DNA of 64,000 nucleotides. It comes from Chloroflexota bacterium. GTDB taxonomy: Bacteria > Chloroflexota > Limnocylindria > P2-11E. The notes under the pieces were generated by a model. That model searched no databases and was not told the DNA's origin. It worked only from the letters and a program-made list of their open reading frames with translations. The DNA lies in the NCBI GenBank assembly GCA_005882255.1, contig VBEZ01000124.1, forward strand, positions 69,953 to 133,952. Reading direction: 5' to 3'. Positions 27,323-46,597 of the stretch are shown here, in pieces. The translations under genes and the position numbers were made by a program. Position 1 is the stretch's first letter. Each line of letters opens with the position of its first letter.

Positions 27323-29449
27323 TTGAAGGTCACTTGTCTACAAGAGAACCTCGCGCGCGGGCTCCAGATCGCCGGACGGGCCGTCTCGACGCGCGGCAGC
27401 CTGCCGATCCTCGGGAATGTGCTGCTTCGGACCGAGGGTGGGCGCTTGAAGCTCACCGCCACGAATCTCGAAGTCGGGATCAACTGCTGGGTTCCCGCGA
27501 AGGTCGATGACGAGGGCGCGATCACCGTGCCGGCGAAGCTCTTCACTGATTTTGTCAACTCCCTGCCGCCCGGCCCGACGGAGCTCTCGCTCAATGTCCG
27601 CACGAAGACGGTGCATCTGCGGCGCGATCCGTACGAAGCGAATTTCAAGGGCATGGACGCGGAGGAGTTCCCGATCATCCCCGTCGCGCCGGAAAAGCCG
27701 ACGACTCGCGTCAGCAAGTCCACGCTTCGTCGCATGATCGGCGAGGTCGCGTTCGTGGCCACGACCGACGACAGCCGACCCGTGCTCACCGGTGTGCTTA
27801 CCACGCTCGAGGGCGACAGGATCACGATGGCTGCGGCCGATCCCTACCGCCTCTCCGTGCGAAACGCGAAGCTGATCGACAAGGTAGAAGGAAAGCTCGA
27901 GGTCATCATCCCAGCGCGCAGCCTCCAGGAAGTGCAGCGGATCCTCGACGACAGCGATGATCCAGTGGACATCTTCGTGACCCCGAACGGTAGCCAGGTG
28001 ATCTTCCACACACCGGAGGTGGATCTCGTCTCACGTGTCATCGAAGGCCAGTTCCCGAATTACCGACAGGTCATCCCACAGGGCAAGCCCGCCACGCGGC
28101 TCGTGGCCCAGCGAGAGGAATTGCTGCAGGCCACCCGGCTCGCCTCGCTCTTCGCGCGCGACTCGGCGAACATGCTCCGCTTCCAGGTGAACCCCGCGGA
28201 CCATCCGCCACTCGTCATCAGCGCGAATGCCGCGGAGGTCGGCGACCAGACGGCGAAGGTGGAGGCGACGGTGGAGGGACAGAACACCACCATCGCGTTC
28301 AACTCGCGGTTCATCTACGACGCGCTCGGCAGCCTCACCGCGTCCGAGGTCGCGCTCGAGGACTTCCGCAGCTACGCACAAGTCGAGCTGCCGCTCGCGC
28401 GTGGCGCCACCACTTTCGTGGGACCGAACGGGGCCGGCAAGACGAACCTTCTCGAGGCGATCCACCTCATCGCGCGCGGCGACTCACCGCGCGCCCGCGA
28501 CGACACGGAGATGGTCCGCTGGGGCGCGACCACGGCGCGCGTCCGGACCGAGGTCGATCGTGCCGAGGACCACCGCCGCATCGAAACGCTCCTCTTCGCG
28601 CCCCCCGAGGGCGAACGCCGGCGGCCGCGCCGCTACCTGCTCGACGGTGCCGCCAAGCGGTCGGAAGATGCGGCCGGCGAGCTCGTCGTCGTTGCGTTCT
28701 TTCCGGAGGACGTCGAGCTGCTCGGGGCGGCGCCAAGCGCGCGCCGCCGATTCATGGACGCCATGCTCGGACAGATCGATCGCGCGCATCGTCGTGAGAT
28801 GCGTGAGCTTCAGCACGTGCTCGAGCAGCGCAACGCGCTCCTACGCGTCGCACGCGAGGAGCTCGAGCTGCCCGAGGCAGAGATGGCGTTCTGGGACGGA
28901 GAGCTCATTCGACTCTCGGCCGCGATCTCGCTCCGTCGGTCACGGCTCGCCACCGAGCTGTCGGCGCCGTTCGTGAGCGCGACCGAGCGCTTCACCGGCG
29001 CCGAGGGTCTGGCCCTCGCGTACGCGGGACAGGTGGAAGGCGCCACGCTGGACGAGCGCGCGAGCGCGTACGCGCGCGTCCTGCGCGAGAAACGCGAGCG
29101 CGAACGCTGGCAGGGAACGTCACTCGTCGGGCCCCAGCGCGACGATCTCGTTGTCACCTCGGCCGGTCGCATGTTGCCGGCCTTCGCGTCGCGCGGTGAG
29201 CATCGCAGTGCGGTGCTTTCGCTGAAGATCGCGGAGGCGGCGTGGCTCGCATCCCGCGTCGGAGAGCAACCGGTCTTCCTGCTGGACGACGTGCTCTCGG
29301 AGCTCGACCCCGCCCGGCGCGAGGCGCTCGCGAACGCCATCCCGCAGGACGCGCAGATCCTGCTCACCGCCGCGATCGTCACGGCCCTTCCCGACGTGCT
29401 GCGCGAGCGCGCCGCGGTGGTGCCGGTGCGGCGGGGCGAGGTCGGATGA
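27323..29449 (+). CDS. dnaN/recF: DnaN (beta sliding clamp) fused in frame to RecF as a single 708-aa ORF
   Basis: Residues 1 to about 336 are a DnaN clamp through FNSRFIYDAL, but the final MPxRL strand is missing. From about 28333 the sequence is RecF (SLTASEVALEDFRSY, Walker A GPNGAGKTNLLEAI, QRNALLR, GPQRDDL, LSLKIAEAAW, LLDDVLSELD). There is no stop and no in-frame start between them. Confidence 0.8.
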   Translation: MKVTCLQENLARGLQIAGRAVSTRGSLPILGNVLLRTEGGRLKLTATNLEVGINCWVPAKVDDEGAITVPAKLFTDFVNSLPPGPTELSLNVRTKTVHLRRDPYEANFKGMDAEEFPIIPVAPEKPTTRVSKSTLRRMIGEVAFVATTDDSRPVLTGVLTTLEGDRITMAAADPYRLSVRNAKLIDKVEGKLEVIIPARSLQEVQRILDDSDDPVDIFVTPNGSQVIFHTPEVDLVSRVIEGQFPNYRQVIPQGKPATRLVAQREELLQATRLASLFARDSANMLRFQVNPADHPPLVISANAAEVGDQTAKVEATVEGQNTTIAFNSRFIYDALGSLTASEVALEDFRSYAQVELPLARGATTFVGPNGAGKTNLLEAIHLIARGDSPRARDDTEMVRWGATTARVRTEVDRAEDHRRIETLLFAPPEGERRRPRRYLLDGAAKRSEDAAGELVVVAFFPEDVELLGAAPSARRRFMDAMLGQIDRAHRREMRELQHVLEQRNALLRVAREELELPEAEMAFWDGELIRLSAAISLRRSRLATELSAPFVSATERFTGAEGLALAYAGQVEGATLDERASAYARVLREKRERERWQGTSLVGPQRDDLVVTSAGRMLPAFASRGEHRSAVLSLKIAEAAWLASRVGEQPVFLLDDVLSELDPARREALANAIPQDAQILLTAAIVTALPDVLRERAAVVPVRRGEVG

Positions 29450-29739
29450 GACCCATCGCGCGCGCGATCGCGAGCGCGCTGCGCACGCTCGGGATCGACC
29501 AGGATGTGGCGCGCGCGGACGCCGTTCGCGCGTGGCCCGCGGCCGCGACGACGGTGCTTGGCGCCGACGCCGTGACGACGCGTGCGGTGCGCACTGACGG
29601 CGATACCCTCGTCGTCCTGGTGCCGACCGCGCAGTGGGCCGGAGAGATCAGACTCCGCGAGCGCGAGCTGCTGGTGGCCCTCGCGGACCGTGCGCCCGCG
29701 AGCCGCATCGCGCGTCTTCGGTGTGTGCCCTCGCCGTGA
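29446..29739 (+). CDS. dciA: DUF721/DciA-family protein (replicative helicase operator in dnaC-less bacteria)
   Basis: A 97-aa protein just downstream of recF with an ATGA overlap. Its conserved position and size match Rv0004-like DciA. Confidence 0.65.
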   Translation: MRPIARAIASALRTLGIDQDVARADAVRAWPAAATTVLGADAVTTRAVRTDGDTLVVLVPTAQWAGEIRLRERELLVALADRAPASRIARLRCVPSP

Positions 29740-29767
29740 GGCGGCGCGTCTGGGACACTCGCGAGCG

Positions 29768-31837
29768 ATGCCGCAACTGAGCTTCGTCACGACGGTCGGC
29801 AGCACGGCTGACGTGCGGGCAAGCCGCGCGGATGTGATCGTCGTGAGCGAGCCTGAGACCGGCGCGACCCTTCGCACCAAGGGCCGGCTCTACCTCTTGT
29901 TCGAGGCATCTCCGCCCGGACCCGCCGAAAAGATCGCCCGCGAGGTCGCGGAGCTGACGCGCCAGGAGTACTACTACGACCTTTCCGCGGGGATCGAGGT
30001 CTCGCTGCGACGTGCGCTGCGACAGGCGAACCGGCGCGCGACACAGCGGCTTCGGGAGAACCGCGGGTCGACAACGCTCCAGTGTGCGTGCGCCGTGATC
30101 GTGAACAACGAGCTGTACACCTCACACGTCGGCGGCGCGCAGGTGTTCCTCGTCCGCCGCGCGCGGCTCTTTCTCCCCGGCGACGAGCCCGGCGAGCTCG
30201 CCGATTTCGTCCATCGGACCACCAAGCGCGAGGCCACGTCGCTCGGTACGGACGCCGATGTGCTCCCGAAGGTGTGGCGCCAGTCGATCGAGGCGGGCGA
30301 CACGGTCATCCTCGCGAGCGCCGCGCTTATCGACGGGCTCGGTGCCGAGGCGCTGAAGAGCGCCGCGGTCACGCTGCATCCGCGGTCGGCGGCGGAGCAC
30401 ATCCACAATCGCGCGGTCGCGGACGGCGTGGTTGGCAGCGACGCGGTGATCTTCATCGAGGTCGCCCAGTCCGGCAGCGCGGCCGTTCGCATCGCACCGG
30501 AGCCGGCGCCGATCGTGCGGCCGGTCGAGGTCGCCGTGGCGGACGGCATTCGATCGCGGCTGGATGTGGTGAATCGCGTCGTGCAGAGCGTGGCGCGGCT
30601 GCTGCGCGGCGCGACGACGCCGGTGACCGCGGCGGCGACGAAGAGCGTGGCGGTCGGTCTGGAGCTCATGCCGCGGCGCGGCGCCGCCCTGCCGCGTCAC
30701 GCCGACACCGCGCGCTCGCGGTCCCGCCGACAGCGGCGCGCCATGACCACGCTCGCCGTGCTGCTGCTCGTCGCCGCGACCGGCGTTGGCGCCCTCGCCT
30801 ATCGCGACTACGAGTCGACCCGAGCGGGTCGCGAATACCAGCTCGCCGTCGCGAACGCGGAGGACTTCATCGCGTCGGCACACCGTTTGGCCGACCGCAA
30901 GCCGCCGGACCCCGACGGCGCGCGCGAGCGGATGGCCAGCGCGACCGCGAAGCTGGACGAAGCGAGCCGCTCGACCTTCGTTGTCCCGGAGAAGATCGCC
31001 GCGCTACGTGCGGACATCGCGGCCCTCACCGACCGCCTCGACGGCGTGATCCTCGATCTCGCGCGGTTCGGGACCGGAACGAAGCTCGCGCAGGTCATCG
31101 GGAACGTGAACGGTCTGTATGTCACCGACCCCGGCGCCGGACGGCTCTGGCGTGTCTTCGGCGACCCGGTCCAACAGGGGCCGGTACTCGAGCGCGGTGT
31201 CAAAGGCGTTGGCTCGCCGGTCCAGCTCGCGCTGGAGGACTTCGCGGTCTACTCGCTCGACGACGCGGGCAAGCTGTGGCGGGCCGAGGGCGATCAGGTC
31301 GTCGACGTGACGCCCGCCGAACGAGACAAGTGGAAGACGCCCGCCGCCCTCGCGGTGTTCGCGAACAACCTGTACGTCCTCGACAGCGAGACCGGCCAGC
31401 TGTGGAAGCACGAGTCGAACGACGGCGTTCGCTTCGGCCCGGCCATCGGGTATCTCGCGACGCCGCTCGCGCCGAACGCGGCCCGAGCGCTCGCGGTCGA
31501 CGGCGATGTCTGGATCGTGACCTCCGCCGGGGACCTGCAGCGCTTCCGCCGCAACCCGCTCGTCACGACCGCCTCGCGCATCGACTTCGTGCCGCGCTGG
31601 GAGGGGACGGCGCCGCGCGCGAACGCCGTCCAGGCCATCGACACGCAGGGATCGATCTACGTGCTCGACTCGGGCGGCAAGCTGATCGTCCAGCTCACGC
31701 GCGATGGCCGCGAGCTGGCGCGGTTCGCGCTGCCGCCCGGTCTGCCGCCCGCGGCGAGCTTCTACGTTTCCGAATCGCTGAGGGTCGCCTACACGCTTCA
31801 CGGGACGAAGATCGTCGCGACGAGCACCGTGCGTTGA
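29768..31837 (+). CDS. Bitopic membrane protein: a cytoplasmic degenerate PP2C-like (pseudophosphatase) domain, one TM helix, and an extracytoplasmic beta-propeller-like repeat domain
   Basis: PP2C-like blocks occur in order, but the metal-binding Asp residues are replaced (EASPPG for DGMGG; SHVGGAQ for GDSR; ASAALID for CSDGL). TM helix TLAVLLLVAATGVGALAY. The repeats are YVTDPGAGRLWRV, YSLDDAGKLWRA, YVLDSETGQLWKH and YVLDSGGKLIVQ. Confidence 0.65.
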   Translation: MPQLSFVTTVGSTADVRASRADVIVVSEPETGATLRTKGRLYLLFEASPPGPAEKIAREVAELTRQEYYYDLSAGIEVSLRRALRQANRRATQRLRENRGSTTLQCACAVIVNNELYTSHVGGAQVFLVRRARLFLPGDEPGELADFVHRTTKREATSLGTDADVLPKVWRQSIEAGDTVILASAALIDGLGAEALKSAAVTLHPRSAAEHIHNRAVADGVVGSDAVIFIEVAQSGSAAVRIAPEPAPIVRPVEVAVADGIRSRLDVVNRVVQSVARLLRGATTPVTAAATKSVAVGLELMPRRGAALPRHADTARSRSRRQRRAMTTLAVLLLVAATGVGALAYRDYESTRAGREYQLAVANAEDFIASAHRLADRKPPDPDGARERMASATAKLDEASRSTFVVPEKIAALRADIAALTDRLDGVILDLARFGTGTKLAQVIGNVNGLYVTDPGAGRLWRVFGDPVQQGPVLERGVKGVGSPVQLALEDFAVYSLDDAGKLWRAEGDQVVDVTPAERDKWKTPAALAVFANNLYVLDSETGQLWKHESNDGVRFGPAIGYLATPLAPNAARALAVDGDVWIVTSAGDLQRFRRNPLVTTASRIDFVPRWEGTAPRANAVQAIDTQGSIYVLDSGGKLIVQLTRDGRELARFALPPGLPPAASFYVSESLRVAYTLHGTKIVATSTVR

Positions 31838-32532
31838 TCCCGCTGCGGGATGCGAATCCCGTACGCAGCGCTCCGATCGTCAACCGCCTGCTCCTCGCGG
31901 TGAACCTCGTCGTCTGGATCTACATCGTGTACCTCACTCGGCAGCCGGGAGCGATGGAGGCGTTCTTCGACCGCTACTCGTTCGACTGGCCCGAGTTCAC
32001 GCGGCGCATCTCCTCCGGCGACCTCGCACCCTCGACGTTCGTGCCTCTGGTGTCGCACATGTTCCTGCACGGCGGCTGGCTGCACGTGCTCGGGAACATG
32101 CTCTATCTCTGGATCTTCGGCGATAACGTCGAAGACCGGTTCGGGAGCGCGCCGTACCTGGTCTTCTACCTGCTGTGCGGCGTCGTCGCGGCGATCGGGC
32201 AGGGTCTCGTCTCGCCGTCGCCGATGGTCGGCGCCTCGGGCGCGATCGCGGGCGTGCTCGCCGCGTATCTCATCATGTTCCCGACCGCGCGCGTGTCGAC
32301 ACTGGTGTTCCTCGGGCTGTTCATCACGATCGTCGAGCTGCCCGCGCTCATCGTCATCGGGATGTTCATCGTGCTTCAGGTCATCGAGGGTGTCGCCGAG
32401 CTCCGCCTCACGGGTCACGCAGCCGCGCAGCAGATCGCGTATTTCGCGCACATCTTCGGCTTCGCGGCGGGGCTGGTGCTTCTGGTGTTCTTCCGGCGCG
32501 CCGATACGGCACGCCGCGTGCGTTTCGGTTGA
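31834..32532 (+). CDS. Rhomboid-family intramembrane serine protease
   Basis: GxSG in TM4 (GASGAIAG) and the catalytic His in TM6 (AHIFGFAAG). TTG start overlapping the upstream stop. Confidence 0.8.
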   Translation: MIPLRDANPVRSAPIVNRLLLAVNLVVWIYIVYLTRQPGAMEAFFDRYSFDWPEFTRRISSGDLAPSTFVPLVSHMFLHGGWLHVLGNMLYLWIFGDNVEDRFGSAPYLVFYLLCGVVAAIGQGLVSPSPMVGASGAIAGVLAAYLIMFPTARVSTLVFLGLFITIVELPALIVIGMFIVLQVIEGVAELRLTGHAAAQQIAYFAHIFGFAAGLVLLVFFRRADTARRVRFG

Positions 32533-32577
32533 CGCGCAAACAGGCGACCGCGGGCGGGGTGGAGGTAGCCTAGGGCG

Positions 32578-33078
32578 ATGCTCGTCCCCTGTACGGTCGA
32601 GTCGGTCCGAGTGCATGTCCTCACGGGTCAGCACGTTGTCCTCCTTCAGGCGAAGGAGAGCAACCGTCTCCTACCGATCTGGATCGGACCCGACCAGGCG
32701 CACAGTATCGCGACGCGCATCGCCGGCATCGCGAGCGAGCGTCCGCTCACGCACGATCTGATGATGGACGTGCTCTCGAAGCTCGGCGTCGAGATCACCC
32801 GCATCGTCGTGAAGGATCTCGTCGCCGACGACAGCGGGGGCGGAGTGTTCCACGGCAGCCTGTTCCTGCAGTTCGGGGAGCGCGAGGTCGAGATCGACTG
32901 CCGGCCGTCCGATGCGATCGCGCTCGCGGTCCGCTGCGACGCGCGCATCCTGGTGTCGGACACGGTCCTCGATCGCTCCGCGATCTCAGCCGAGAGCGAG
33001 GACGACGAGAACATCGCGGTGTTCAAGGAGTTCATCCAGACACTCCCCGACGACCCGCCGGGTCCGAGTACCAGCTAG
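32578..33078 (+). CDS. Bifunctional-nuclease (BFN/DUF151) domain protein
   Basis: RLLPIWIGPDQAHSIA...THDLM...RPSDAIALA, the conserved DUF151 layout. Confidence 0.65.
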   Translation: MLVPCTVESVRVHVLTGQHVVLLQAKESNRLLPIWIGPDQAHSIATRIAGIASERPLTHDLMMDVLSKLGVEITRIVVKDLVADDSGGGVFHGSLFLQFGEREVEIDCRPSDAIALAVRCDARILVSDTVLDRSAISAESEDDENIAVFKEFIQTLPDDPPGPSTS

Positions 33079-33201: not shown

Positions 33202-33921
33202 CTAGACCCGCAGCCCCCAGAGCCGCAGGCGCAGGCGCAACAGGTCGCGGATCGCGCGCAGGATCACCTTCGGCTGCTGGCCCTTTGCCTTGCCGGCGCT
33301 GCGCGGGTAATGGGGCACGCCGACCTCCCGCATACGGACGCCTGCGCGCCGCAGCGTGATCAGCATCTCCGCTGAGAAGAACGCGCCGTTCGAGCGCACG
33401 CTCGCAAGCGGCACCCGCTCGAACACCTCGCGGCGGAAGAGCTTGAACGCGCAGTCCACGTCGCGGAAGCCGCCGAAGAACAGGACGCGGATCACGCGGT
33501 TGTAGACCCATGCGACGAAGCGCGTTCGCGGCGGATCCTGACGTTTCAGGCGATAGCCCAACACGACCTCGACCCCGTCGATGACGGCCGTCAGGCGCCC
33601 GAGGTCCGCGATGTCGAACTGCCGGTCGCCGTCGGTGAAGAAGATGAACTCTTTCGTCCCCGACAGCAGGCCGGAGCGCACCGCGCCGCCATAACCGCGA
33701 CGCGCGCCGTGGTGGACGACGTGCACGCGGGGGTCCGCCTTCGCGAGATCGTCGGCGATCTTTCCGGTCCGGTCGGTGCTGCCGTCGTCGATCACCGTGA
33801 CCTCGATGTCGTCGGCGAAGCGTGGTAGCACGGTCAGCGCGTCGCGCACCACGGCCTCCACGTGATCTTCCTCGTTGAGCGCCGGAAAGAAGAACGAGAG
33901 GCTCCCGAGTCGTGCGGACAA
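33202..33921 (-). CDS. GT2-family polyprenyl-phosphate glycosyltransferase (Dpm1/PpgS/ArnC-like)
   Basis: GT-A DxD context VTVIDDGSTDRT and FTDGDRQ. Size and the C-terminal basic amphipathic tail resemble polyprenol-P-sugar synthases. Confidence 0.8.
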   Translation of the reverse strand: MSARLGSLSFFFPALNEEDHVEAVVRDALTVLPRFADDIEVTVIDDGSTDRTGKIADDLAKADPRVHVVHHGARRGYGGAVRSGLLSGTKEFIFFTDGDRQFDIADLGRLTAVIDGVEVVLGYRLKRQDPPRTRFVAWVYNRVIRVLFFGGFRDVDCAFKLFRREVFERVPLASVRSNGAFFSAEMLITLRRAGVRMREVGVPHYPRSAGKAKGQQPKVILRAIRDLLRLRLRLWGLRV

Positions 33922-33951
33922 CGCAGCGCAAGGTTAGCGTGTTGCGTCGGG

Positions 33952-35142
33952 ATGACCTGGAGCGACCGCAGGATCGCGACCCTGCTCGCGGCCGCAGGTG
34001 CCGTGGCGTACCTCGTCGCCGGGTCGGGACTTCTTACCGACTACGACTATTACGGACGTCTCGCGCAGGCGCTCCTCCACGGACAGTGGTGGGTGAGTGA
34101 AGCGCCGCCCTGGCTCAACGAGCTCGTCCCCTGCGGCGATGCGCGGTGGTGCGTCGTGTATCCACCGCTCCCGGCGATCCTCGCGATGCCGCTTGCGGCG
34201 GTGCTGCCGACCGCGCTCGCGCAGGTGCTCGTTTCGCGCATCGCGGGCGGCGTCTCCGCCGGGATCCTGTATCTCGCGCTGCGCGCGTTCGGAGCGCCGC
34301 GCCGCGTGGCGATCACCGGAGCGCTCCTCTCGACGTGCGGGACCACGCTCTTCTTCTCGAGCGTCGACGGACGTGCGTGGTTCGCGGCGCACGCCGTCGC
34401 GATGCCGTTTCTCTGCGCCGCCCTCCTGTTCGCCGCTCGCGGCGAGCGCGCGTGGGTCATCGGTGTCTGCATCGGGCTCGCGGCGCTGGCGCGCCTCCCC
34501 GTGGCCGCCGCGGCTCCGGCGCTGGCGCTGCTCCTCGCGCGGCGCGCCGGAGCGCCATATCTGCGAACGCTCGGGGGCGTCGTGATCGGCGGGGCGCCGT
34601 TCGCTCTCGTCTACGTCGGCTGGAACCTGCTGCGGTGGGGATCCGTGTTCGACGCCGGATACGTGCAGCTCACGCAGGGCGACGTCTTCTTCACCCGCGG
34701 ACTCTTCTCACCGTTCTATCTGCCGCGTCACATCTACGCGATCTTCCTCGAGCCGCCCGATCTCGTGGAGGGAACGCCGTTCTTCCTGCGGCCGCGCGGC
34801 ATCGGCACGGCGCTGTTCCTGACGACGCCGGCGTTCCTGTGGCTGTTCGCGGGTCTCCGCGGCCTGCGTCGTGACGCCGGCACCGCGGCCGTGGCGCTCG
34901 CCGCGCTGCTTGCGCTCGTGCCCGACATCTTCCACGGCACCGTCGGCTTCCAGCAGTTCGGCTATCGCTTCTCCATGGACGCGCAGCCCTTCCTCGTCGC
35001 GCTCGCGCTCGTGGGGGACGCACGCGGCGGTGCCACCTGGCGCGCGCGCCCGTCGTGGCTCTTCGTCGCGGTCGTGACGGTGTCGGTCGTGATCAACCTC
35101 TACGCGATGATCGCGATCACGCGCTTCGATTACTGGCAGTGA
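33952..35142 (+). CDS. Polytopic GT-C-like membrane glycosyltransferase (DUF2029/GT87-like)
   Basis: About 11 TMS, with an acidic/aromatic first loop TDYDYYG. ATG at 33952; the ORF-track start at 33862 would overlap the divergent GT2 start. Its stop overlaps the next gene's GTG (GTGA). Confidence 0.6.
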   Translation: MTWSDRRIATLLAAAGAVAYLVAGSGLLTDYDYYGRLAQALLHGQWWVSEAPPWLNELVPCGDARWCVVYPPLPAILAMPLAAVLPTALAQVLVSRIAGGVSAGILYLALRAFGAPRRVAITGALLSTCGTTLFFSSVDGRAWFAAHAVAMPFLCAALLFAARGERAWVIGVCIGLAALARLPVAAAAPALALLLARRAGAPYLRTLGGVVIGGAPFALVYVGWNLLRWGSVFDAGYVQLTQGDVFFTRGLFSPFYLPRHIYAIFLEPPDLVEGTPFFLRPRGIGTALFLTTPAFLWLFAGLRGLRRDAGTAAVALAALLALVPDIFHGTVGFQQFGYRFSMDAQPFLVALALVGDARGGATWRARPSWLFVAVVTVSVVINLYAMIAITRFDYWQ

Positions 35143-38100
35143 CCGAGACGGAGCTGACCGTGCGCGACGACCGCCGCACGAACCTCGCTACGGCGGGCCT
35201 CATCACCCTCGGTGTCGCGCTGCGCTTGCTGACGCTGCGCTCGCCCGGTTTCCCCAGCGACGTCGGCACGTTCCAGGCGTGGGCCGAGCACCTGGTCCAG
35301 GTCGGGCCCGGCGGCTTCTATGCGCCGGATTACTTCAGCGACTACCCGCCGGCCTATCTCTATGTCCTCTGGCTGTTCGGCGCCGTCTTCGATGGTGAGC
35401 TGCTCCGCCTCGCGGTGAAGGCCGCGAGCATCCCGGCGGACGTCGCGATCGCCGTCGGAGCGGCCGCGCTGGCGTGGCGTCACGCCGGTCGCGGGAGCGC
35501 GATCCTCGCCGCCGGCCTGTGGTCGCTCTCGCCGGCGGCGATCTTCGCCGGCCCGTACTGGGGGCAGATCGACGCGGTCGGGTCGCTGCCCCTCTTCGCG
35601 GCGCTCGTTGCCGCGGGACGCGGCCGCTGGGCGACGGCCGGTGCGCTCGCCGCGCTCGCCGCGATGGTGAAGCCGCAGTTCGGCATCGGCGCGGTCGTGA
35701 TCGCCGGCGCGGTGCTCATCGAGCTGATCCGGTACGGACGCTGGCAGCCGCTCGGGCGCGTCGCGCTCGCCGGCGTCGTCACCGCGCTCGCGCTGGGTGC
35801 GCCGTTCAAAGCGGGGCCCGCGGAGCTCGTCGACCTCGTGAAGAAAGCATCCGAGACCTATCCCTACACATCGCTGTTCGCGTTCAACGTGTGGTCGATC
35901 GCCGCCGATTTCTGGCAGCCCGACGCCGCGTACGTCGGCATCGGGACGCTGCTGCTGGTCGCGGGGCTGCTCGGCTCGTGCGTCCCGCTGTGGTGGCGCC
36001 GCGACACCGCGACGTTCCTCGCGGCGGGCACGCTCGCGGCCTGCGCCTTCTACTTCCTGCCCACGCGCGCCCACGAGCGATACCTGTTCCCTGCGCTCGT
36101 CCTGCTGCTCCCGCTCGCCGCGGTGCGCGCGCGCCTCCTCTGGCCGTACGTCGCGTTCTCCCTCGGCTTCGCGGTGACGCTGTACTTCGCGTTCACGCGC
36201 TACGCGCAGAACGACCTCAAGTCGCCGCCATGGCTCGAGTCGACGCTCTTCTCGCGCACCGGTCAGATCGTGCTCGCGCTCTTCATGCTCGGCACGGCCG
36301 GGCTCGTCGCGTGGCGGCTCCTCCGTGGCGAGGCGCGCCTCGAGCCGTCGCTCGATGTCTCCCTTCCGGCGGCGCCGGCGCCCGACGCCGAGCCGCGCGC
36401 TGCCTGGCGCCTGCCGGCGGCGCTCGCGACGGGACATGCGCCGACGCGCCGCGACCTTTCGATCGCACTGCTCGTCGCGATCGCCGTCCTCGTGACGCGC
36501 GGTTACCGGCTCGATCACCCGCGCGACATGTACTTCGACGAGGTCTATCACGCGCGCACCGCGTTCGAGCTCCTCGCGCAGCGCGATCCGTACGAGTGGA
36601 CGCACCCGCATCTCGCGAAAGAGATCATGGCGCTCGGCATCCTCGCGTTCGGCGACGATCGCGTCGTCGGTCACGAGCCTGCGCCTGGCGCGAACGCCGT
36701 GGCCCTCGCCGTCGGTCCCGACGGCACCCGCGCCTACGCCACGTCCGACGGCGTCATCACCCTTCGCGCGCGCGACAGCGCCGTGAGTCGCGACGTGGTG
36801 AAGGGCGCGCTCGGTGTGCGTGCCCTGGTCCTCGACGGCTCGCGCATCCTCTGGGCGACGGACACCGAACTCTTCCAGAGCCCGGTGACGGAGCCGCCGA
36901 GCAACTTCGTGACTCCGCGCGCGAGACTTCCGGTCGGCGGCCCGGTCACGGCGCTGTTCGTATCCGGCGGCCGCGTCGTCGTCGCCACCGCGTCGGGCGT
37001 CGCCGTCTACACCGCCATCGACGCGGCGCCGGTCGTCTCGCAGCTGGGCGCCGCGAGCGTGACGTCCAACCCGGACGGCACCGAGCTCTATGTCCTCGAC
37101 GCGCACGGCGATGTCCACGTCCTCGATCCCGCGACCGGCAACGAGACGCGACTGCTTCCGGGTGGCGGCCCGGGTCGCGCGATCGCATACGCGCAGGCGC
37201 CGAACCGACTCTTCGTCGCGCGCGCGGACACGCCGGCTCTCGACGTATACGAGCTGCCGAACGGCCAGCGCGACTCAGTGCCGCTCGCGAACGCGCGCAC
37301 CGGCACCTTCGCGTCGGGCGCGACCGCCCTGGTGGTCGTGCCGCGCACGCAGTTCCTCTACGCCCTCGCGGAGGGCCGCGTCGTGGTCGTCGAAGTGCAC
37401 GGCGCCTCGCCGTTCGCCGCGATACCGGTGTCGGGCTCACTCCTCGCGTTCGACAACGACGACGACAAGCTGCTCGTCGCGGGCCCCGGCGGTGCCGACC
37501 TCATCGAGACCGGACGCCACGCTCTTGCCTGGCGCCTGCCGGGGGTGTTGCTCGGCGCGATCCTCGCGTTCTTCCTCGTGCTACTCGCGCGCCGGCTGTT
37601 CGCTTCGCCGGCCGTGGCGTGGCTCGTCGGCGCGGCGGTGCTGCTGTGCGGATCGATGTTCGCGCAGGCGCGCATCGGCATGAACGACATCTACGTCGCG
37701 ACGTTCATCGTCGCCGGGTGGTACTTCATCGTCGCGGCGCACCGGCCCCGGCGTTCCGCCGCCGCCGACCTCGTGATCGCGGGAGCGCTGCTCGGGCTCG
37801 GCCTCGCCTCGAAGTGGGCCGCGGCCTACACCCTGGGTGGCGTCTTCGTGCTATCAGTCGGCGTCACCGCGCTCGCGTACGAACGCGGGCGGCCCGGGAC
37901 CGGCGGACCGCTCGATCTTCTCGCCGGCCGGGGACGTGGCGCCGCGCTGCTCTTCGTCTCGTTCGCGGTGATCCCGCTCCTCATCTACCTCGGTAGCTAC
38001 GCGAGCTGGTTCGGCGGCAAGACGGCGCCGTACGGCTGGAATCTGTGGGAGCTCACGCAGCAGATGTACTGGTACCACAGCTCCCTGACCGCCCCGCACT

Positions 38101-38732
38101 GCGCGGGCTCGCCCTGGTGGAGCTGGCCGCTCGATCTCAAACCGGTCTACTGGTACTTCGGCGCGAGCGGCGGCGGCGCGAATGGGTACATCTACGACGC
38201 CGGCAACATCGTGCTCTTCTGGGCGGCGTTGCCGGCGGCCGCGCTCATCGTCGCGCTCGCGGTCCGCGCGCGGTCGCACTCGCTCGCGCTGCTGTCGCTC
38301 GCGATGCTCGCGCAATACCTCGCGTGGATCCCGATCTCACGCGTCCTGTTCTTCTACCACTTCTTCACCGTGCTGCCGTTCTACCTCCTCTCCCTCGCCG
38401 CGGTGCTTGGCGGGCTGTGGGAGCGCCGGCGGAAGGCGGTGCTCGTGTTCGTCGGGATCGCCGCGGCGTCGTTCGTCATCTTCTATCCGTACGTCTCCGG
38501 CCTGCCGATCCCGGGTGAGCTCGGGAGCCTCTACGCGATCCTGCCGACGTGGCAGTACGACCCGGCGTTCTATCCGACCGACTCATGTCCGACGCCGGTG
38601 AGCGCGGGGGTGCTGACGTCGGCGACCGTCGCGGCGGCGTGGATCGTCGAGACCGCCGTGCTGCTCTTCGCCGTCGCCGTCGCGATCGGCCTGCCGGCCG
38701 CGCGTCGGCTGCTCGACCGACTCGGGCTCTAG
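35139..38732 (+). CDS. Roughly 1197-aa chimeric membrane glycosyltransferase: an N-terminal GT-C/DUF2029-like module, then a GT39/PMT-like module whose first periplasmic loop (DE motif) carries a roughly 300-aa beta-propeller-like insert
   Basis: N-module PDYFSDYPPAYLYVLWLFG. PMT signature MYFDEVYHARTAFELL...HPHLAKEIMALGILAFG. The insert has repeats such as TELYVLDAHGDVHVLD and LFVARADTPALDVYEL. After the insert come the canonical PMT/ArnT helices LLARRLFASPAVAWLVGAAVLL...QARIGMNDIYVATF. GTG start coupled to the preceding gene. Confidence 0.7.
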   Translation: MTETELTVRDDRRTNLATAGLITLGVALRLLTLRSPGFPSDVGTFQAWAEHLVQVGPGGFYAPDYFSDYPPAYLYVLWLFGAVFDGELLRLAVKAASIPADVAIAVGAAALAWRHAGRGSAILAAGLWSLSPAAIFAGPYWGQIDAVGSLPLFAALVAAGRGRWATAGALAALAAMVKPQFGIGAVVIAGAVLIELIRYGRWQPLGRVALAGVVTALALGAPFKAGPAELVDLVKKASETYPYTSLFAFNVWSIAADFWQPDAAYVGIGTLLLVAGLLGSCVPLWWRRDTATFLAAGTLAACAFYFLPTRAHERYLFPALVLLLPLAAVRARLLWPYVAFSLGFAVTLYFAFTRYAQNDLKSPPWLESTLFSRTGQIVLALFMLGTAGLVAWRLLRGEARLEPSLDVSLPAAPAPDAEPRAAWRLPAALATGHAPTRRDLSIALLVAIAVLVTRGYRLDHPRDMYFDEVYHARTAFELLAQRDPYEWTHPHLAKEIMALGILAFGDDRVVGHEPAPGANAVALAVGPDGTRAYATSDGVITLRARDSAVSRDVVKGALGVRALVLDGSRILWATDTELFQSPVTEPPSNFVTPRARLPVGGPVTALFVSGGRVVVATASGVAVYTAIDAAPVVSQLGAASVTSNPDGTELYVLDAHGDVHVLDPATGNETRLLPGGGPGRAIAYAQAPNRLFVARADTPALDVYELPNGQRDSVPLANARTGTFASGATALVVVPRTQFLYALAEGRVVVVEVHGASPFAAIPVSGSLLAFDNDDDKLLVAGPGGADLIETGRHALAWRLPGVLLGAILAFFLVLLARRLFASPAVAWLVGAAVLLCGSMFAQARIGMNDIYVATFIVAGWYFIVAAHRPRRSAAADLVIAGALLGLGLASKWAAAYTLGGVFVLSVGVTALAYERGRPGTGGPLDLLAGRGRGAALLFVSFAVIPLLIYLGSYASWFGGKTAPYGWNLWELTQQMYWYHSSLTAPHCAGSPWWSWPLDLKPVYWYFGASGGGANGYIYDAGNIVLFWAALPAAALIVALAVRARSHSLALLSLAMLAQYLAWIPISRVLFFYHFFTVLPFYLLSLAAVLGGLWERRRKAVLVFVGIAAASFVIFYPYVSGLPIPGELGSLYAILPTWQYDPAFYPTDSCPTPVSAGVLTSATVAAAWIVETAVLLFAVAVAIGLPAARRLLDRLGL

Positions 38733-39637
38733 GGGCTCGCGCTCGGCGGCGGCGCCGTCGGCGACGGTTCCGACGTCGGGGACGGCGTCGGTGTCGGTGT
38801 CACGGACTCGCTCGCCGTGGGCGACGCGGTGAGGGGACTCGGTCGCGCCGAAGAAGCCGGCGGGACGGAGCTCGCCGCGAAGAGGACCGCGACCGCGCCG
38901 CCGATCGTGACGAGGATCAGGAGCGCGAACACGATGAATGCGACCGCGCGGCCCGCGGTGCTCGTGACCGTCGGCCCGCGCGTGGGCGCGTGTACGAGGA
39001 CGGTGATGTTGTCCTGACCGCCGCGGGCGTTCGCGAGGTCGACGAGCGCGTTCGCCGCGACGCGCACGTCCTCACCGCTCGCCGCCTTCGCGATCTCTTC
39101 GGGCGTGACGTGGCGCGTGAGACCGTCGCTGCAGAGCAGGAGCCGGTCGGTCGGACGCAGGCTCTCGACGTAGATGTCCGGTTGGATGCCACGCACGTCG
39201 CCGGCGAAACGCGTGATCGCGTGCGCCATCTCGCCCGAGTGATCCTCGGTGAGCTGCCGGCTGGCGCCGTCGCGGATCAGGTACGCCCGGCTGTCGCCGA
39301 GGTTGGCGATGATCGCCTGGTCCGCGCGCACCGCCGCGGCGACGATGGTGGTCGCCGCGTCGTGATGGCCCGATGCGCTCGCCGCCCTCAGCACAGCGGC
39401 ATTCGCATCGCGCATCGCCTCGGCGAGCGCGTCGCTCGTCGCGCGATCGGGCGGCGCACCGAAAAAGCGGAGCCCGAGCTCGACGAGCGCGGCATCCGCC
39501 GCGACCTCACCACCGCTCGATCCGCCGACGCCGTCGGCGACGGCGAGCAGCGTGACGCCGCGCTCTTCGCGGACGAGGTAGCGGTCTTCGTTCCCGTCAC
39601 GAACGCGGCCCGTATCGGTCCTCGCACCGGTCGCCAC
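38729..39637 (-). CDS. PP2C-family Ser/Thr phosphatase (PstP-like) with a C-terminal TM helix and a Pro/Ser/Thr-rich extracytoplasmic tail
   Basis: Motifs TDTGRVRDGNEDRYLV, AVADGVGG, GDSRAYL, LLCSDGL and GGQDNITVLV. TM helix FIVFALLILVTIGGAVAVLF, then a PTPTPSPTSEPSPTAPPP tail. The likely start is the internal GTG; the ORF-track start at 39787 overlaps the kinase. Confidence 0.85.
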   Translation of the reverse strand: MATGARTDTGRVRDGNEDRYLVREERGVTLLAVADGVGGSSGGEVAADAALVELGLRFFGAPPDRATSDALAEAMRDANAAVLRAASASGHHDAATTIVAAAVRADQAIIANLGDSRAYLIRDGASRQLTEDHSGEMAHAITRFAGDVRGIQPDIYVESLRPTDRLLLCSDGLTRHVTPEEIAKAASGEDVRVAANALVDLANARGGQDNITVLVHAPTRGPTVTSTAGRAVAFIVFALLILVTIGGAVAVLFAASSVPPASSARPSPLTASPTASESVTPTPTPSPTSEPSPTAPPPSASP

Positions 39638-39642
39638 GCGCG

Positions 39643-40926
39643 TCAGTCCTGCGACTTCCCGCCGCAGTCCTTGCCGCCGACGAGGAAGAGGCGCGCGGTC
39701 GCGCCCTGCTGCGCGGCCGTCCCGGGCTGCGGCTCCTGCCGTGCGACGGTGCAGGCCTGGCCCTGCGCCGCGGGATCCACCTGCCACGGCACGGGAGACC
39801 GGTAGCCCGCCGCGATGAGAAGCCGCGCCGCCTCGTCGACGCTCCGACCGACGACGTTCGGCGTGACGTGTGCGCCGGCGGATGCCGACGGAGCGCCGGT
39901 GGGCCGCGCATCGACCGCACGGCCCTGGAACGACGCGAAGATCGCGAGCGTGGCGACGAGCACGAGGACGATCGCCAGGAGCGCGATCGTCGTGTCGACA
40001 TGGAACTCGCGCCGACCGCGGGCGCGAAGCGGCCGCGTCACCGGTGGCAGGACGCCCGTAGCGTCGTCGCGCTGCGACGCCGCGAGCAGTTCGCGCGCGA
40101 ATGCTCCGGCGCTCGCGTACCGGCCCTGCGGATCTCGCGCGAGCGCCTTCGCGACGACCCGGTCGATCTCCTCGCTGATGCCGACACGTGCCGAGCGCAG
40201 CGACGGCGCCCGACCGTCCAGGCGGACGCGCAGCAGATCCTCGGTCTCCATCTCGGCGTTCGGCGGCCGACCGGCGATGAGCTCGTAAGCGACGAGACCG
40301 AGGCTGTAGACATCGCTGCGCTCGGTCGGAGCGCGGCCCTCGATGCGCTCCGGCGCGATGTACCGCGCGGTGCCGATGAGCTCGTGCTCGCGTGGCCCGC
40401 GCGCCGCGCGCGCGATGCCGAAGTCGGTGAGCTTCGCGGTGCCCTGCTGGTCGACGATGACATTCGCAGGCTTCACGTCGCAGTGGATGACGCCCGCTTC
40501 GTGCGCCGCGTCGAGCGCGGCCGCGATCTGCGCCACCAGGCGCGCGGCCTCGTGCGGGCGTAGCGGTCCGCGGTCAGCCACGACGTCACGCAGCGTTCGC
40601 CCGCGCACGAGCTCCATGACCATGAAGGCGTCGGCGCCGTCGCGGCCCTCGTCGAAGACCGTGACGACGTTCGGATGTATCACGGACGCCGCGCGCCGCG
40701 CCTCATCCGCGAAGCGCTCGCGGAACGCCTCGTCGGCACTGGGACCCAGGATCTTGATCGCCACATCGCGGTCGAGGCGCTCGTCGCGAGCCTGCCAGAC
40801 CTCGCCCGCGCCGCCTTCGTCGATGCGTTTGTTCAGGCGGTAGCGGCCGGCGAGGACCCGGCCCTCCGTCGCGTCCTCACCACCTTCGGCGCGTTCTTCC
40901 GATGGCATGCCTTTCGTTGGCGGCAA
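39643..40926 (-). CDS. Hanks-type Ser/Thr protein kinase with a single C-terminal PASTA domain; non-RD catalytic loop (HCD)
   Basis: VAIKIL, HCDVKPANV (Arg to Cys in the HRD motif), DFGIA, GTARYIAPE, a TM helix, and one PASTA domain (VTPNVVGRSVDEAARLLIAAGY...). Confidence 0.85.
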   Translation of the reverse strand: MPPTKGMPSEERAEGGEDATEGRVLAGRYRLNKRIDEGGAGEVWQARDERLDRDVAIKILGPSADEAFRERFADEARRAASVIHPNVVTVFDEGRDGADAFMVMELVRGRTLRDVVADRGPLRPHEAARLVAQIAAALDAAHEAGVIHCDVKPANVIVDQQGTAKLTDFGIARAARGPREHELIGTARYIAPERIEGRAPTERSDVYSLGLVAYELIAGRPPNAEMETEDLLRVRLDGRAPSLRSARVGISEEIDRVVAKALARDPQGRYASAGAFARELLAASQRDDATGVLPPVTRPLRARGRREFHVDTTIALLAIVLVLVATLAIFASFQGRAVDARPTGAPSASAGAHVTPNVVGRSVDEAARLLIAAGYRSPVPWQVDPAAQGQACTVARQEPQPGTAAQQGATARLFLVGGKDCGGKSQD

Positions 40927-43774: not shown

Positions 43775-44670
43775 TCACTTCTTGACGGCGTGACCGCCGA
43801 ATTGATTGCGCAGCGCAGCCGCGACTTTCATGGCGTACGAGTCGTCCTGTCTTGATGTGAATCGAGCGAAGAGCGAATGCGCCAGCACGGTCGCCGGTAC
43901 ATCGTGCGCGATCGCTTCTTGGATGGTCCATCGACCCTCACCGGAGTCCGCGACCCAGCCTTTGATGTTCGCCAGGTCGGGTCCCTCCTGATCGAATGCG
44001 CGCTCCGCGAGCTCGAGGAGCCACGAGCGCACGACGCTTCCCTGCAGCCAGACGCTCGCGACACGCTTCATGTCGATCTCGAATTCGCTCGCGTGGATGA
44101 GCTCGAAACCCTCGCCGTACGCCTGCATCATCCCGTACTCGATCCCGTTGTGGACCATCTTGATGAAATGGCCCGCGCCGCTCTTTCCGAAATGCGCCCA
44201 GCCGTTCGGCGGCGCGAGCGTGTCGAGCACCGGCCTCGCGCGCTCCACCGCGCGTGCCTCGCCGCCGACCATCATGCAGTAGCCGTTGTCGAGTCCCCAG
44301 ATCCCCCCGGAGACTCCGACGTCGAGATAGTCGAATCCCTGGGCCCTGTATTTCTCCGCCCGCCGCATCGAGTCGCGGAAATACGAGTTGCCCCGTCGAC
44401 GAGTACGTCACCCTTGCTCGCGTATCGTGCGAACTCGTCGAGGGTCTGATCGGTGGCCTCCCCAGCGGGCACCATCGACCAGAGGACGCGCGGGGGACGA
44501 AGCTGCTTCGTCATCTCCTCGATCGAGTAGGCGCCGACGGCGCCCTCGGCTTTCGCCTCATCGACCGGGCCGGGGCTGCGATTTCCCGCCACGACGTGGT
44601 GCCCGCCGCGGACCAGACGCGTGACCATGTTGCCGCCCATCCGGCCCAGGCCGTACAGCCCGATCTCCAT
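43775..44670 (-). pseudogene. gnd: 6-phosphogluconate dehydrogenase (short NAD-type Gnd) interrupted by a -1 frameshift in a G-run
   Basis: The N-terminal part MEIGLYGLGRMGGNM...DVLVDG is in one frame (44272..44670). The C-terminal part (N)SYFRDSMRRAEKYRAQGFDYLDVGVSGG... is in another (43775..44384). Plus-strand ccccg at 44391-44395 (minus-strand GGGGC) has 5 nt where GGNGGC needs 6. Confidence 0.75.
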
Positions 44671-44731
44671 GCCGTCACCCCCGTGGTGCGACCGAGGATA
44701 TTCGGTCCACGCCCTCTTCCTGCGGTAGGGT

Positions 44732-46597
44732 GTGGTCGTGGCGACCGTGAGCGAGACGGCGACGCGGCTCGACGTATACCGTTCGCTGGCGCGACAGCTG
44801 CGCGCCGACAGCATCCGATGCTCGACCGCCGCCGGATCCGGCCACCCGACGTCATCGCTGTCCGCGGCCGATCTCATGGCGGTGCTGCTCGCGGGCCATC
44901 TTCGCTACGACTTCGAGCGGCCGGACGTGCTCGCGAACGACCACCTCATCTTCTCCAAGGGCCACGCGTCGCCGCTCGTGTACGCGATGTTCCGCGCGGC
45001 CGGCGCGATCGACGACGCGGAGCTCATGACGTTCCGGAAGCTCGGCTCGCGCCTCGAAGGTCATCCGACGCCGATCCTTCCCTGGGTCGACGTGGCGACA
45101 GGTTCGCTGGGGCAGGGTCTGCCGATCGGTGTCGGCGTCGCGCTCGCCGGCAAACGGCTGCTGCGGGCGCCGTTCCACGTGTGGGTCGTCGTCGGCGACA
45201 GCGAATCGGCCGAGGGCTCGGTCTGGGAGGCCCTCGATCTCGCCGGCCATGAAGGCCTCGAGAACGTCACCGCGATCCTCGACGTGAACCGCCTCGGTCA
45301 GCGCGGGCCGACCGAGCTCGAGTGGGACACCGACGCGTACGCGTCGCGCGTGAAGGCATTCGGCCTCGAGGGGATCGTGATCGATGGCCACGATCTCTCG
45401 CAGATCGACGACGCGTACGAACGCGCGCGCTCGTCGAGACGACCGAACGCGATCATCGCGAAGACCGTGAAGGGCAAGGGCGTCTCCTTCCTGGAAGACA
45501 AACCGGGCTGGCATGGCAAGGCACTCGACGCGGAGCAGGCGAAGCAGGCGCTGGCGGAGCTCGGCGCCGAGCCATCGCGCGTGTTCGAGGTGCCGAGCCC
45601 GCCGGCGTGGCGGCCGGCCCCGCTTCCGCCGCGCAAGACCCCGGACCTCCGGCGTTACACCGAGCCCGTCGCAACGCGTAAGGCGTACGGCGAGGCGCTC
45701 GCGGCGCTGGGTGCCGCGCGCGCGGACGTCGTGGCGCTCGACGCCGAGGTGAGCAATTCGACCCACGCCGAGGATTTCAAGAAGACCGCCCCCGATCGCT
45801 TCTTCGAGATGTACATCGCCGAGCAGCGGATGATCGCGGTGGCGGTCGGGATGCAGGTCGTCGGCTTCGTGCCATTCGCGTCGACCTTCGCGGCGTTCCT
45901 CACGCGCGCGTATGACTTCATCCGCATGGCCGCGATCTCGCGTGCGGACATCCGTCTCTCCGGTTCGCATGCCGGAGTCTCCATCGGTGAGGACGGTCCG
46001 TCGCAGATGGCGCTCGAGGATCTCGCGATGATGCGAGCCGTGCACGGCAGCACCGTCCTGTATCCGTGCGACGCGAATCAGACCGCGAAGCTCGTCGCGG
46101 CGATGGCCGACCTGCGCGGTATCTCGTACATCCGAACGACGCGCGCGAATACTCCGATCCTCTACCGACCCGAGGACGAATTTCCGATCGGCGGAAGCCG
46201 CGTCGTGCGCGGCGGCGGTCCGGACGATCGCGTCACCGTCGTCGCGGCCGGCATCACGGTGCACGAGGGAGTGAAAGCCGCGGACGAGCTTGCGAAATCC
46301 GGCGTGAAGATCCGGCTCGTCGACGCCTACTGCGTGAAACCGCTCGACGCGCAGGGCATCGCGAAGGCGGTGCGGGAGACCGGCGGGCGCCTCGTCATCG
46401 TGGAAGACCACTGGCCCGAGGGCGGCCTCGGCGATGCGGTCGTCTCGGCCCTGGTCGGGCTCGGCGTGAACGACCTCGCGGTGCGCCACCTCGCGGTGCG
46501 CGACATGCCCGGGTCGGGCAAGCCCGCGGAGCTCGTGGAGGCGGCCGGCATCGCGGGCCGCGACATCGCCGCCGCGGTGCGCGCGCTGCTGGCTTGA
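44732..46597 (+). CDS. tkt: Transketolase
   Basis: The TPP-binding segments GSGHPTSSLSAADL and GDSESAEG, and a full-length Tkt. Confidence 0.9.
   Translation: MVVATVSETATRLDVYRSLARQLRADSIRCSTAAGSGHPTSSLSAADLMAVLLAGHLRYDFERPDVLANDHLIFSKGHASPLVYAMFRAAGAIDDAELMTFRKLGSRLEGHPTPILPWVDVATGSLGQGLPIGVGVALAGKRLLRAPFHVWVVVGDSESAEGSVWEALDLAGHEGLENVTAILDVNRLGQRGPTELEWDTDAYASRVKAFGLEGIVIDGHDLSQIDDAYERARSSRRPNAIIAKTVKGKGVSFLEDKPGWHGKALDAEQAKQALAELGAEPSRVFEVPSPPAWRPAPLPPRKTPDLRRYTEPVATRKAYGEALAALGAARADVVALDAEVSNSTHAEDFKKTAPDRFFEMYIAEQRMIAVAVGMQVVGFVPFASTFAAFLTRAYDFIRMAAISRADIRLSGSHAGVSIGEDGPSQMALEDLAMMRAVHGSTVLYPCDANQTAKLVAAMADLRGISYIRTTRANTPILYRPEDEFPIGGSRVVRGGGPDDRVTVVAAGITVHEGVKAADELAKSGVKIRLVDAYCVKPLDAQGIAKAVRETGGRLVIVEDHWPEGGLGDAVVSALVGLGVNDLAVRHLAVRDMPGSGKPAELVEAAGIAGRDIAAAVRALLA

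Follow-up and report, generated by a model that had tools for sequence, protein, structure and literature searches.

A Chloroflexota fusion protein with two GT-C modules and a β-propeller inside loop 1 of its PMT module: a candidate single-chain counterpart of bacterial protein O-mannosyltransferase complexes

Bacterial protein O-mannosylation matters for the virulence of mycobacteria, and how the enzyme chooses its substrates is an unsolved question. The mycobacterial enzyme Pmt (ML0192c/Rv1002c), which belongs to glycosyltransferase family GT39, has been described in association with three other proteins: ML2687c/Rv0051, a GT87-family partner that is said to lack catalytic residues and is needed for full Pmt function; ML0810c/Rv3212, whose eight-bladed periplasmic propeller was modelled directly above the DE active site of Pmt and is likened by the authors to MIR domains; and ML1065/Rv1209, a small DivIVA-like protein (bioRxiv 10.64898/2026.07.15.738315). 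The evidence for this complex comprises prediction, phenotype correlation and pull-down, and the same preprint reports a Paenibacillus protein in which GT39 is fused to GT87 (UniProt V9WAU2). Outside the Actinobacteria, a GT39 enzyme of Caldicellulosiruptor is required for protein glycosylation (PMC6151902). Here we analyze a three-gene locus in a stretch of 64,000 nucleotides (the window) of contig VBEZ01000124.1, from a Chloroflexota bacterium of the Limnocylindria (assembly GCA_005882255.1), where a GT2 glycosyltransferase and a GT-C-fold membrane protein of 396 amino acids (aa) accompany a fusion protein of 1197 aa (Table 1). We propose, with a probability of roughly 0.6, that these genes encode a pathway for glycosylation outside the cytoplasm with a lipid-linked sugar as donor, and that its core is a single-chain equivalent of a multi-subunit bacterial protein O-mannosyltransferase.

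The fusion protein unites the components known from mycobacteria, namely a GT39 module with a DE motif, a GT87-like GT-C module and an extracytoplasmic β-propeller; like mycobacterial Pmt it lacks a MIR domain, and it would draw on a polyprenyl-phosphate sugar as donor. The mycobacterial subunits are separate, however, whereas here one polypeptide makes the GT39-GT87-like association covalent, and the propeller, a subunit of its own in mycobacteria, is inserted inside loop 1. The partner also differs: ML2687c is said to have no catalytic residues, while the N-terminal module of the fusion (N-module) keeps the canonical catalytic aspartate and polar motifs. In the yeast Pmt1-Pmt2 dimer (6P25) the partner is a second GT39 protein instead of a covalently joined ALG6/GT87-like one, and both this dimer and Pmt4 (9E61) carry a MIR β-trefoil in the loop between transmembrane helices (TM) 7 and 8 rather than a propeller in loop 1. 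The same order of an N-terminal ALG6/GT87-like module and a C-terminal GT39 module is found in Paenibacillus V9WAU2 and in four fusions from the Candidate Phyla Radiation (CPR) and Cyanobacteria (our loci L057, L060, L071 and L077). The insert-free fusions that we examined conserve the N-module motifs, but their loop 1 is uninterrupted (0-2 extra residues) and they are only about 800-875 aa long. ALG6 (GT57), glycosylphosphatidylinositol mannosyltransferase I (GPI-MT-I) and PimE (GT87) share with the N-module the GD...W and DYPP motifs of loop 1 and an HE(R/K) motif; in contrast to the N-module, which scores just under the Pfam GT87 cut-off, they are stand-alone enzymes that act on lipid-linked glycans. 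The first-pass annotation of the window, made from the letters alone, recognized no enzyme with two GT-C modules and a propeller inside the loop. This stands in so far as the literature gave us no account of a PMT with a propeller in its loop 1, nor anything relevant on Limnocylindria glycosyltransferases or on the PGAP (Prokaryotic Genome Annotation Pipeline) name of the homologues, "phospholipid carrier-dependent glycosyltransferase"; the preprint cited above (bioRxiv 10.64898/2026.07.15.738315) already describes GT87-GT39 fusions and a propeller subunit of Pmt, which lessens the novelty. What is new here is that one chain holds every part, that the propeller sits inside loop 1 and that the partner module is apparently still catalytic.

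Two Pfam models match the C-terminal half of the fusion above their cut-offs: PF02366 (PMT) at residues 795-907 (43.6 bits, cut-off 22.7) and PF16192 (PMT_4TMC) at residues 968-1138 (39.7 bits, cut-off 32.4). The former covers profile positions 82-197 only, because the insert splits the PMT domain. Alignment to solved PMTs recovered the missing first third upstream, with residues 426-499 (TM1, FDEVYH and HPHLAKE) aligning to residues 42-115 of 9i5k. A family profile built from six sequences matched yeast Pmt1 (6P25_A) with an E value of 2.6e-22 and in three pieces, its positions 8-79, 378-482 and 538-720 corresponding to Pmt1 residues 45-114, 144-251 and 535-736, thus indicating that some 298 extra profile positions lie between Pmt1 residues 114 and 144, in luminal loop 1. 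These fall just after the HPPLAK helix of the loop. The FDEVYH...HPHLAKE segment spans residues 466-495 (F466-D467-E468 and H489-P-H-L-A-K494), D467-E468 is aligned to the DE motif of Pmt1, and neither the DE nor the HP(H/P)LAK motif varies among 84 sequences or in six distant ones; the PMT similarity is not spurious. The module has a GT-C fold resembling that of solved PMTs. Nothing in the family profile matches Pmt1 residues 251-535, the MIR region, and the loop there has 68 residues; this does not speak against membership of bacterial GT39, since actinobacterial Pmt also lacks such domains. An extra C-terminal helix (residues 1158-1183) is not present in two of the relatives (L003 and L004).

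The fold of the insert was predicted with AlphaFold2 from an 84-sequence alignment (mean predicted local distance difference test score (pLDDT) 81, predicted template-modelling score 0.66). Residues 505-792 form 28 β-strands, which make up seven four-stranded blades with pLDDT values of mostly 86-96, and Foldseek matched the insert to seven-bladed propellers with template-modelling scores of 0.7-0.79, normalised to the target. Sequence similarity links the insert to the YVTN S-layer propeller 1l0q (E 3.2e-10) and to YncE (E 3.3e-4); the YVTN repeat model TIGR02276 reached only 16 bits against a cut-off of 27.85, and none of the Pfam propeller models was significant on the insert (best E 0.047, BamB-type). 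No membrane helix lies between the DE motif and the propeller, which together with homology to the PMT topology places the propeller outside the cytoplasm; by the predicted topology it is on the DE-motif side of the membrane, and it is contiguous with the DE loop. Topology derived from the model's helices gives 20 Arg/Lys among the 93 residues of loops predicted to be cytoplasmic, against 16 among the 192 residues of outward-facing loops, and every invariant polar motif falls in the latter. The first-pass annotation had suspected a double GT-C protein with a folded, extracytoplasmic propeller in PMT loop 1, and it is borne out by the three-piece Pmt1 match, the Pfam scores and this confidently predicted structure. 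Conservation is uneven along the chain: mean identity across the family is 89% in the first part of loop 1 (residues 437-504) and 71-89% in the membrane modules, compared with 58% in the propeller (35-52% in blades 2-4), which is the least conserved folded part of the protein. The linker between the two GT-C modules is the least conserved segment of all (46% mean identity) and has pLDDT values below 50 at residues 404-420.

The small GT2 matches PF00535 with 88 bits (cut-off 23.3, E 7.5e-25), and its best solved relatives are ArnC (E 1.9e-12), the archaeal dolichyl-phosphate (Dol-P) mannose synthase 5mlz (6.8e-5) and GtrB (2.7e-4). Its top NCBIfam matches, all below the equivalog cut-offs, are a Dol-P hexose transferase, ArnC, AglJ and PpgS. 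As the first reading of the locus had it, the sequence points to a candidate polyprenyl-phosphate hexose synthase, which would supply the donor. The 396-aa protein is a candidate third lipid-sugar-dependent glycosyltransferase; comparison of its family with each fusion module by hhalign was not significant (E 0.13 and 0.54). Both genes accompany the fusion in Limnocylindria, where the 396-aa gene always overlaps the fusion gene by 4 bp, and in one relative (L002) all three are contiguous and co-directional. GT2 orthologues with 45-93% identity adjoin the fusion in Limnocylindria, Actinomycetota, Dormibacterota and a second Chloroflexota family (45-62% in the last three), and relatives of the 396-aa protein with 25-31% identity adjoin many distant fusions. 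The two genes travel with the fusion across phyla.

The class of acceptor, the identity of the sugar and the activity of the modules are our inferences; in the proposed mechanism the GT2, at the cytoplasmic face, would charge polyprenyl phosphate with a hexose, most likely mannose, and the product would then be flipped. The GT39 module would use D467-E468 to move the sugar to Ser/Thr residues of exported proteins. The propeller, which directly follows the HPHLAKE helix, would stand beside the active site outside the membrane and could gate or select acceptors, the role that has been proposed for ML0810c/Rv3212 in mycobacteria and for the MIR domains of eukaryotic PMTs. The N-module, tethered by a linker that the topology assigns to the cytoplasm, would correspond, within one chain, to Pmt2 of the yeast dimer and to ML2687c/Rv0051; it keeps the conserved aspartate and further invariant residues in loops assigned to the outside, and it probably adds a further sugar, while the 396-aa protein may add another. 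The first-pass suggestion of a propeller that selects substrates for GT2-fed glycosylation of proteins or a lipoglycan agrees with the model that has been put forward for Pmt of mycobacteria (bioRxiv 10.64898/2026.07.15.738315). Mannose is indicated by one genomic context only, the neighbourhood of a 1214-aa homologue in an Actinomycetota metagenome-assembled genome (MAG; L003, JBBDKJ010000002.1, 6779-13699), an apparent mannose-metabolism cluster that comprises GtrA-family protein, divergent GT2, fusion, phosphomannomutase-family gene, Trm112p and mannose-6-phosphate-isomerase-type cupin, in which the phosphomannomutase-family gene overlaps the fusion by 4 bp (translational coupling).

Several observations weigh against this proposal. 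The mannose-metabolism genes adjoin a relative with only 29-33% identity and are not in the window, and the best solved relative of the GT2, ArnC, is not a mannose enzyme; the sugar cannot be read from the sequence. The fusion scores 44.4 bits with NF058602, the NCBIfam equivalog for actinobacterial Pmt, against a cut-off of 800, which indicates that it is not an orthologue of characterised Pmt and that the acceptor class could differ. Its propeller has seven blades of the YVTN type versus eight in ML0810c/Rv3212, the two being compared by description only, and no DivIVA-family gene of the ML1065 type was found at 27-45 kb of the window, the only part that was searched. Coverage of the active site by the propeller and packing of the N-module against GT39 in the manner of Pmt1-Pmt2 are both assumed. 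Finally, the insert-carrying genomes are all MAGs, and the members of the family are known from sequence.

The main rival explanation retains the machinery and changes the acceptor to a lipoglycan or a wall- or S-layer-associated polysaccharide, in which case the propeller would serve as a binding site for the growing glycan or for a carrier protein. In mycobacteria, PimE, MptA/B and the Aft enzymes build or decorate glycans of this kind. The N-module does resemble enzymes that work on lipid-linked glycans (ALG6, ALG3, GPI-MT-I and PimE), and a set of three GT-C catalytic units and a donor synthase resembles a pathway that makes a short polymer or an oligosaccharide. To our knowledge, GT39 proteins with a PMT_4TMC region have been tied only to protein O-glycosylation, which counts against such an acceptor. 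In favour of it, propeller partners are reported for non-protein GT-Cs too, AftB being paired with the ML1720 homologue (bioRxiv 10.64898/2026.07.15.738315). The Pmt equivalog score far under its cut-off and an LCP-family (LytR-CpsA-Psr) ligase gene beside a CPR relative would likewise fit a polysaccharide. Against this, the DE/HPPLAK loop is kept at 89% identity, and the nearest system of known function that combines these three components mannosylates proteins; we consider a non-protein acceptor rather unlikely.

Protein O-mannosyltransfer by the fusion could also proceed with the GT39 module alone, the N-module being a non-catalytic scaffold or a pseudo-enzyme that holds the acceptor, as proposed for ML2687c and for the role of yeast Pmt2. 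The mycobacterial GT87-like partner is reported to be needed for full Pmt function even without catalytic residues, and a fusion as such demands physical association only. The N-module itself reads differently. By its sequence it clearly belongs to the ALG6/GT87-like GT-C class, and its CAZy family assignment is ambiguous: the Pfam GT87/DUF2029 model matches residues 69-302 with 19.4-22.7 bits, just under the cut-off of 25, and among 18 diverse N-modules 11 match GT87 (best E 8.6e-10), four Alg6_Alg8 and five PMT_2. A five-sequence N-module profile had no PDB match, whereas a cross-phylum profile of 18 sequences matched yeast ALG6 (E 7.4e-12) and GPI-MT-I (E 2.3e-11). In this alignment D41 (GFPSDVGTFQAW) pairs with the aspartate of ALG6 GDFEAQRHW, and SDYPP with ALG6 LDYPP. 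The ALG6 aspartate has chain index 87, which equals native D69, the catalytic base of ALG6 (PMC12653191), if the 562-residue chain carries an 18-residue tag, as its length suggests. D41 is invariant in 84 close homologues, in 25 cross-phylum sequences and in the 18 N-modules of the profile alignment; WGQxD (residues 141-145), KPQ (178-180), NxW (250-252) and HER (312-314) are invariant too, in relatives labelled Chloroflexota, Actinomycetota, Dormibacterota, CPR, Cyanobacteria and Bacillota. This invariance, which for D41, WGQxD, KPQ and HER extends over at least six phylum-level groups, makes the N-module look like an active enzyme and not a degenerate scaffold, and conservation of the polar loops is what an active site would show. 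Within the family the N-module is 71% conserved, comparable with the PMT helices, and this conservation makes a scaffold-only role less likely; we judge that role improbable, and the N-module is, on these sequence features, probably still catalytic.

The distribution of the fusion was followed in a scan of GTDB species genomes, which gave 80 loci, all in MAGs, and by subsequent tblastn and open reading frame (ORF) tracing. The N-module and the split PMT share one frame with an insert of 282-303 residues in at least 35 Limnocylindria/Chloroflexota genomes. The same fusion frame, with an insert of 276-284 residues, is found in Actinomycetota MAGs, and in a Dormibacterota contig the frame is continuous and the contig ends inside the insert. 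The fusion is present in at least two phyla, and probably in a third (Dormibacterota), and we regard it as old. Full-length homologues are 1177-1253 aa long with 61-99% identity, and those that are named come mostly from Candidatus Limnocylindria. An artefact, whether an assembly join, a frameshift-merged gene pair or an unstructured filler insert, is excluded in spite of other possible sequence defects in the window (merged dnaN-recF, an apparently split 6-phosphogluconate dehydrogenase gene), as the 1197-aa protein recurs with 99% identity and the same length in an independent assembly, full-length homologues number more than 120, the same-frame fusion occurs in dozens of MAGs from different studies and from these two or probably three phyla, and the insert folds with a pLDDT of about 90 in prediction.

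Relatives without the insert set the fusion in a wider context. Loop 1 is uninterrupted in relatives labelled CPR, Cyanobacteria, Bacillota, Dehalococcoidia and Gammaproteobacteria, in which the N-module is either part of the same protein or the product of the gene directly upstream; ALG6/GT87-like GT-Cs paired with GT39 are therefore widespread, and the propeller is a lineage-specific addition. One of these, an insert-free fusion of 815 aa in a Woesebacteria MAG (L071, 1416-10944), is flanked by the LCP-family gene mentioned above, a PMT_2 GT-C, a homologue of the 396-aa GT-C and secreted-type proteins with DUF11, Ig-like and fn3 domains; a separate propeller gene was looked for beside it and none was found. 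The second Chloroflexota family is longer, 1750-1900 aa, with a loop-1 insert of about 340 residues and a further downstream insert, as judged by Pfam. Its loci in Chloroflexota/Limnocylindrales are L046, L050-L052, L055, L056, L066, L070 and L079-L084, with relatives of up to 2092 aa. The loop-1 insert of this family has weak WD40-like matches only, and the downstream insert lies between the PMT and PMT_4TMC regions, the position of the MIR domain in eukaryotes.

The locus lies in the chromosomal origin region of the genome, with parAB, gyrBA, yidC, dnaA, dnaN and recF in the window, whose GC content is 65-72%. The 396-aa gene is divergent from the GT2 gene and coupled to the fusion gene through the overlap given in Table 1, an arrangement that the first-pass annotation had described correctly. 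Its open frame spans 33862-35142, and a start at ATG 33952 is almost certain because the resulting 396 aa agree in length with over 100 homologues and with the genes called in related contigs. A PASTA-domain kinase and a PP2C phosphatase are convergent with the fusion gene, as had also been noted, and the stop codons of the fusion and PP2C genes share the palindrome CTAG (38729-38732). This arrangement is kept in Limnocylindria and is not found beside the fusions of Actinomycetota or other relatives. A regulatory role of the pair was set aside, since synteny within Limnocylindria only does not make proximity evidence of regulation.

Table 1. Coordinates of the three-gene locus, the parts of the fusion protein and the convergent genes (positions in the window).
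Feature	Position	Strand	Remarks
GT2 glycosyltransferase, 239 aa, without C-terminal TM helices	33202..33921	-	PF00535
Polytopic GT-C-fold membrane protein, 396 aa	33952..35142	+	TDYDYYGR motif directly after TM1
Fusion protein, 1197 aa, ~24 TM helices	35139..38732	+	GTG start at 35139 overlaps upstream TGA at 35140-35142 (GTGA overlap)
N-terminal ALG6/GT87-like GT-C module, residues 1-400, 12 TM helices	35139..36338	+	
D41, aspartate just after TM1	35259..35261	+	motif GFPSDVGTFQAW; invariant
Disordered linker, residues 401-436, Arg-rich at both ends	36339..36446	+	assigned cytoplasmic by topology
PMT TM1 and first part of extracytoplasmic loop 1, residues 437-504	36447..36650	+	FDEVYH, HPHLAKE; Pmt1 45-114
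DE motif D467-E468	36537..36542	+	invariant
Seven-bladed YVTN/YncE-type β-propeller, residues 505-792, within loop 1	36651..37514	+	
PMT TM2-TM7, residues 793-958	37515..38012	+	PF02366; Pmt1 144-251
Short loop at MIR position, PMT_4TMC, extra C-terminal TM helix and stop, residues 959-1197	38013..38732	+	PF16192
PP2C phosphatase	38729-39787	-	convergent with fusion gene
Ser/Thr kinase, one PASTA domain	39643-40926	-	convergent with fusion gene

Upstream of the locus, a block on the forward strand (29582-33078) encodes a protein of about 700 aa, a rhomboid protease that ends at 32532 and a bifunctional-nuclease-domain protein (32578-33078), and the order of the three is the same in L001 and L002. 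The first of these has an apparent N-terminal cytoplasmic part, one TM helix and C-terminal NHL-like repeats (Pfam NHL, E 4e-4). Further upstream, dnaN and recF form one ORF of 708 aa (27323-29449, forward strand), where DnaN runs in frame into RecF. The C-terminal domain of DnaN breaks off early in this ORF, at position 95 of the 121 positions of its Pfam profile (match 1-95), and roughly 29 aa from the end of DnaN and some 10 aa from the start of RecF are missing. In L002 the genes are separate; the merger reflects either a genuine loss of about 0.12 kb or a mistake in the assembly. The 6-phosphogluconate dehydrogenase gene (43775-44877, reverse strand) is apparently split: a 197-aa ORF (43775-44368) begins at position 102 of the NAD-binding profile, the gene of relatives encodes 299 aa, and an overlapping ORF (44272-44877) may carry the N-terminus, with a frameshift or sequencing error as a possible cause. 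In GyrA (992 aa, 5503-8481, forward strand), residues 122-269 are an intein splicing domain (Pfam Intein_splicing, E 1.2e-15). A 478-aa protein (17049-18485, forward strand) strongly matches LMF1 (E 8.5e-66) and LMF1_C (E 2.1e-51), the domains of lipase maturation factor, a family known mainly from eukaryotes.

Fusion of the three components in one gene of a distant phylum provides independent genomic support for the mycobacterial complex, and many phyla have the two GT-C modules paired, either in one protein or in neighbouring genes. That the partner module was apparently catalytic at first is a hint at the ancestral state. More tentatively, the fusion may be a self-contained O-glycan synthase with two active sites, in which GT39 initiates on Ser/Thr of proteins selected by the propeller and the ALG6/GT87-like module extends the glycan, and which would represent the ancestral, fully active state. 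If so, the mycobacterial complex, with its inactive GT87-like partner and detached propeller, and possibly the logic of the eukaryotic Pmt dimer, would be derived from that state, and the propeller and the MIR domains would each have answered the problem of acceptor gating independently. As a single polypeptide with fixed stoichiometry, the protein is suited to electron cryomicroscopy and mutagenesis. The locus suggests that PMT-type protein glycosylation takes place in abundant uncultured soil Chloroflexota.

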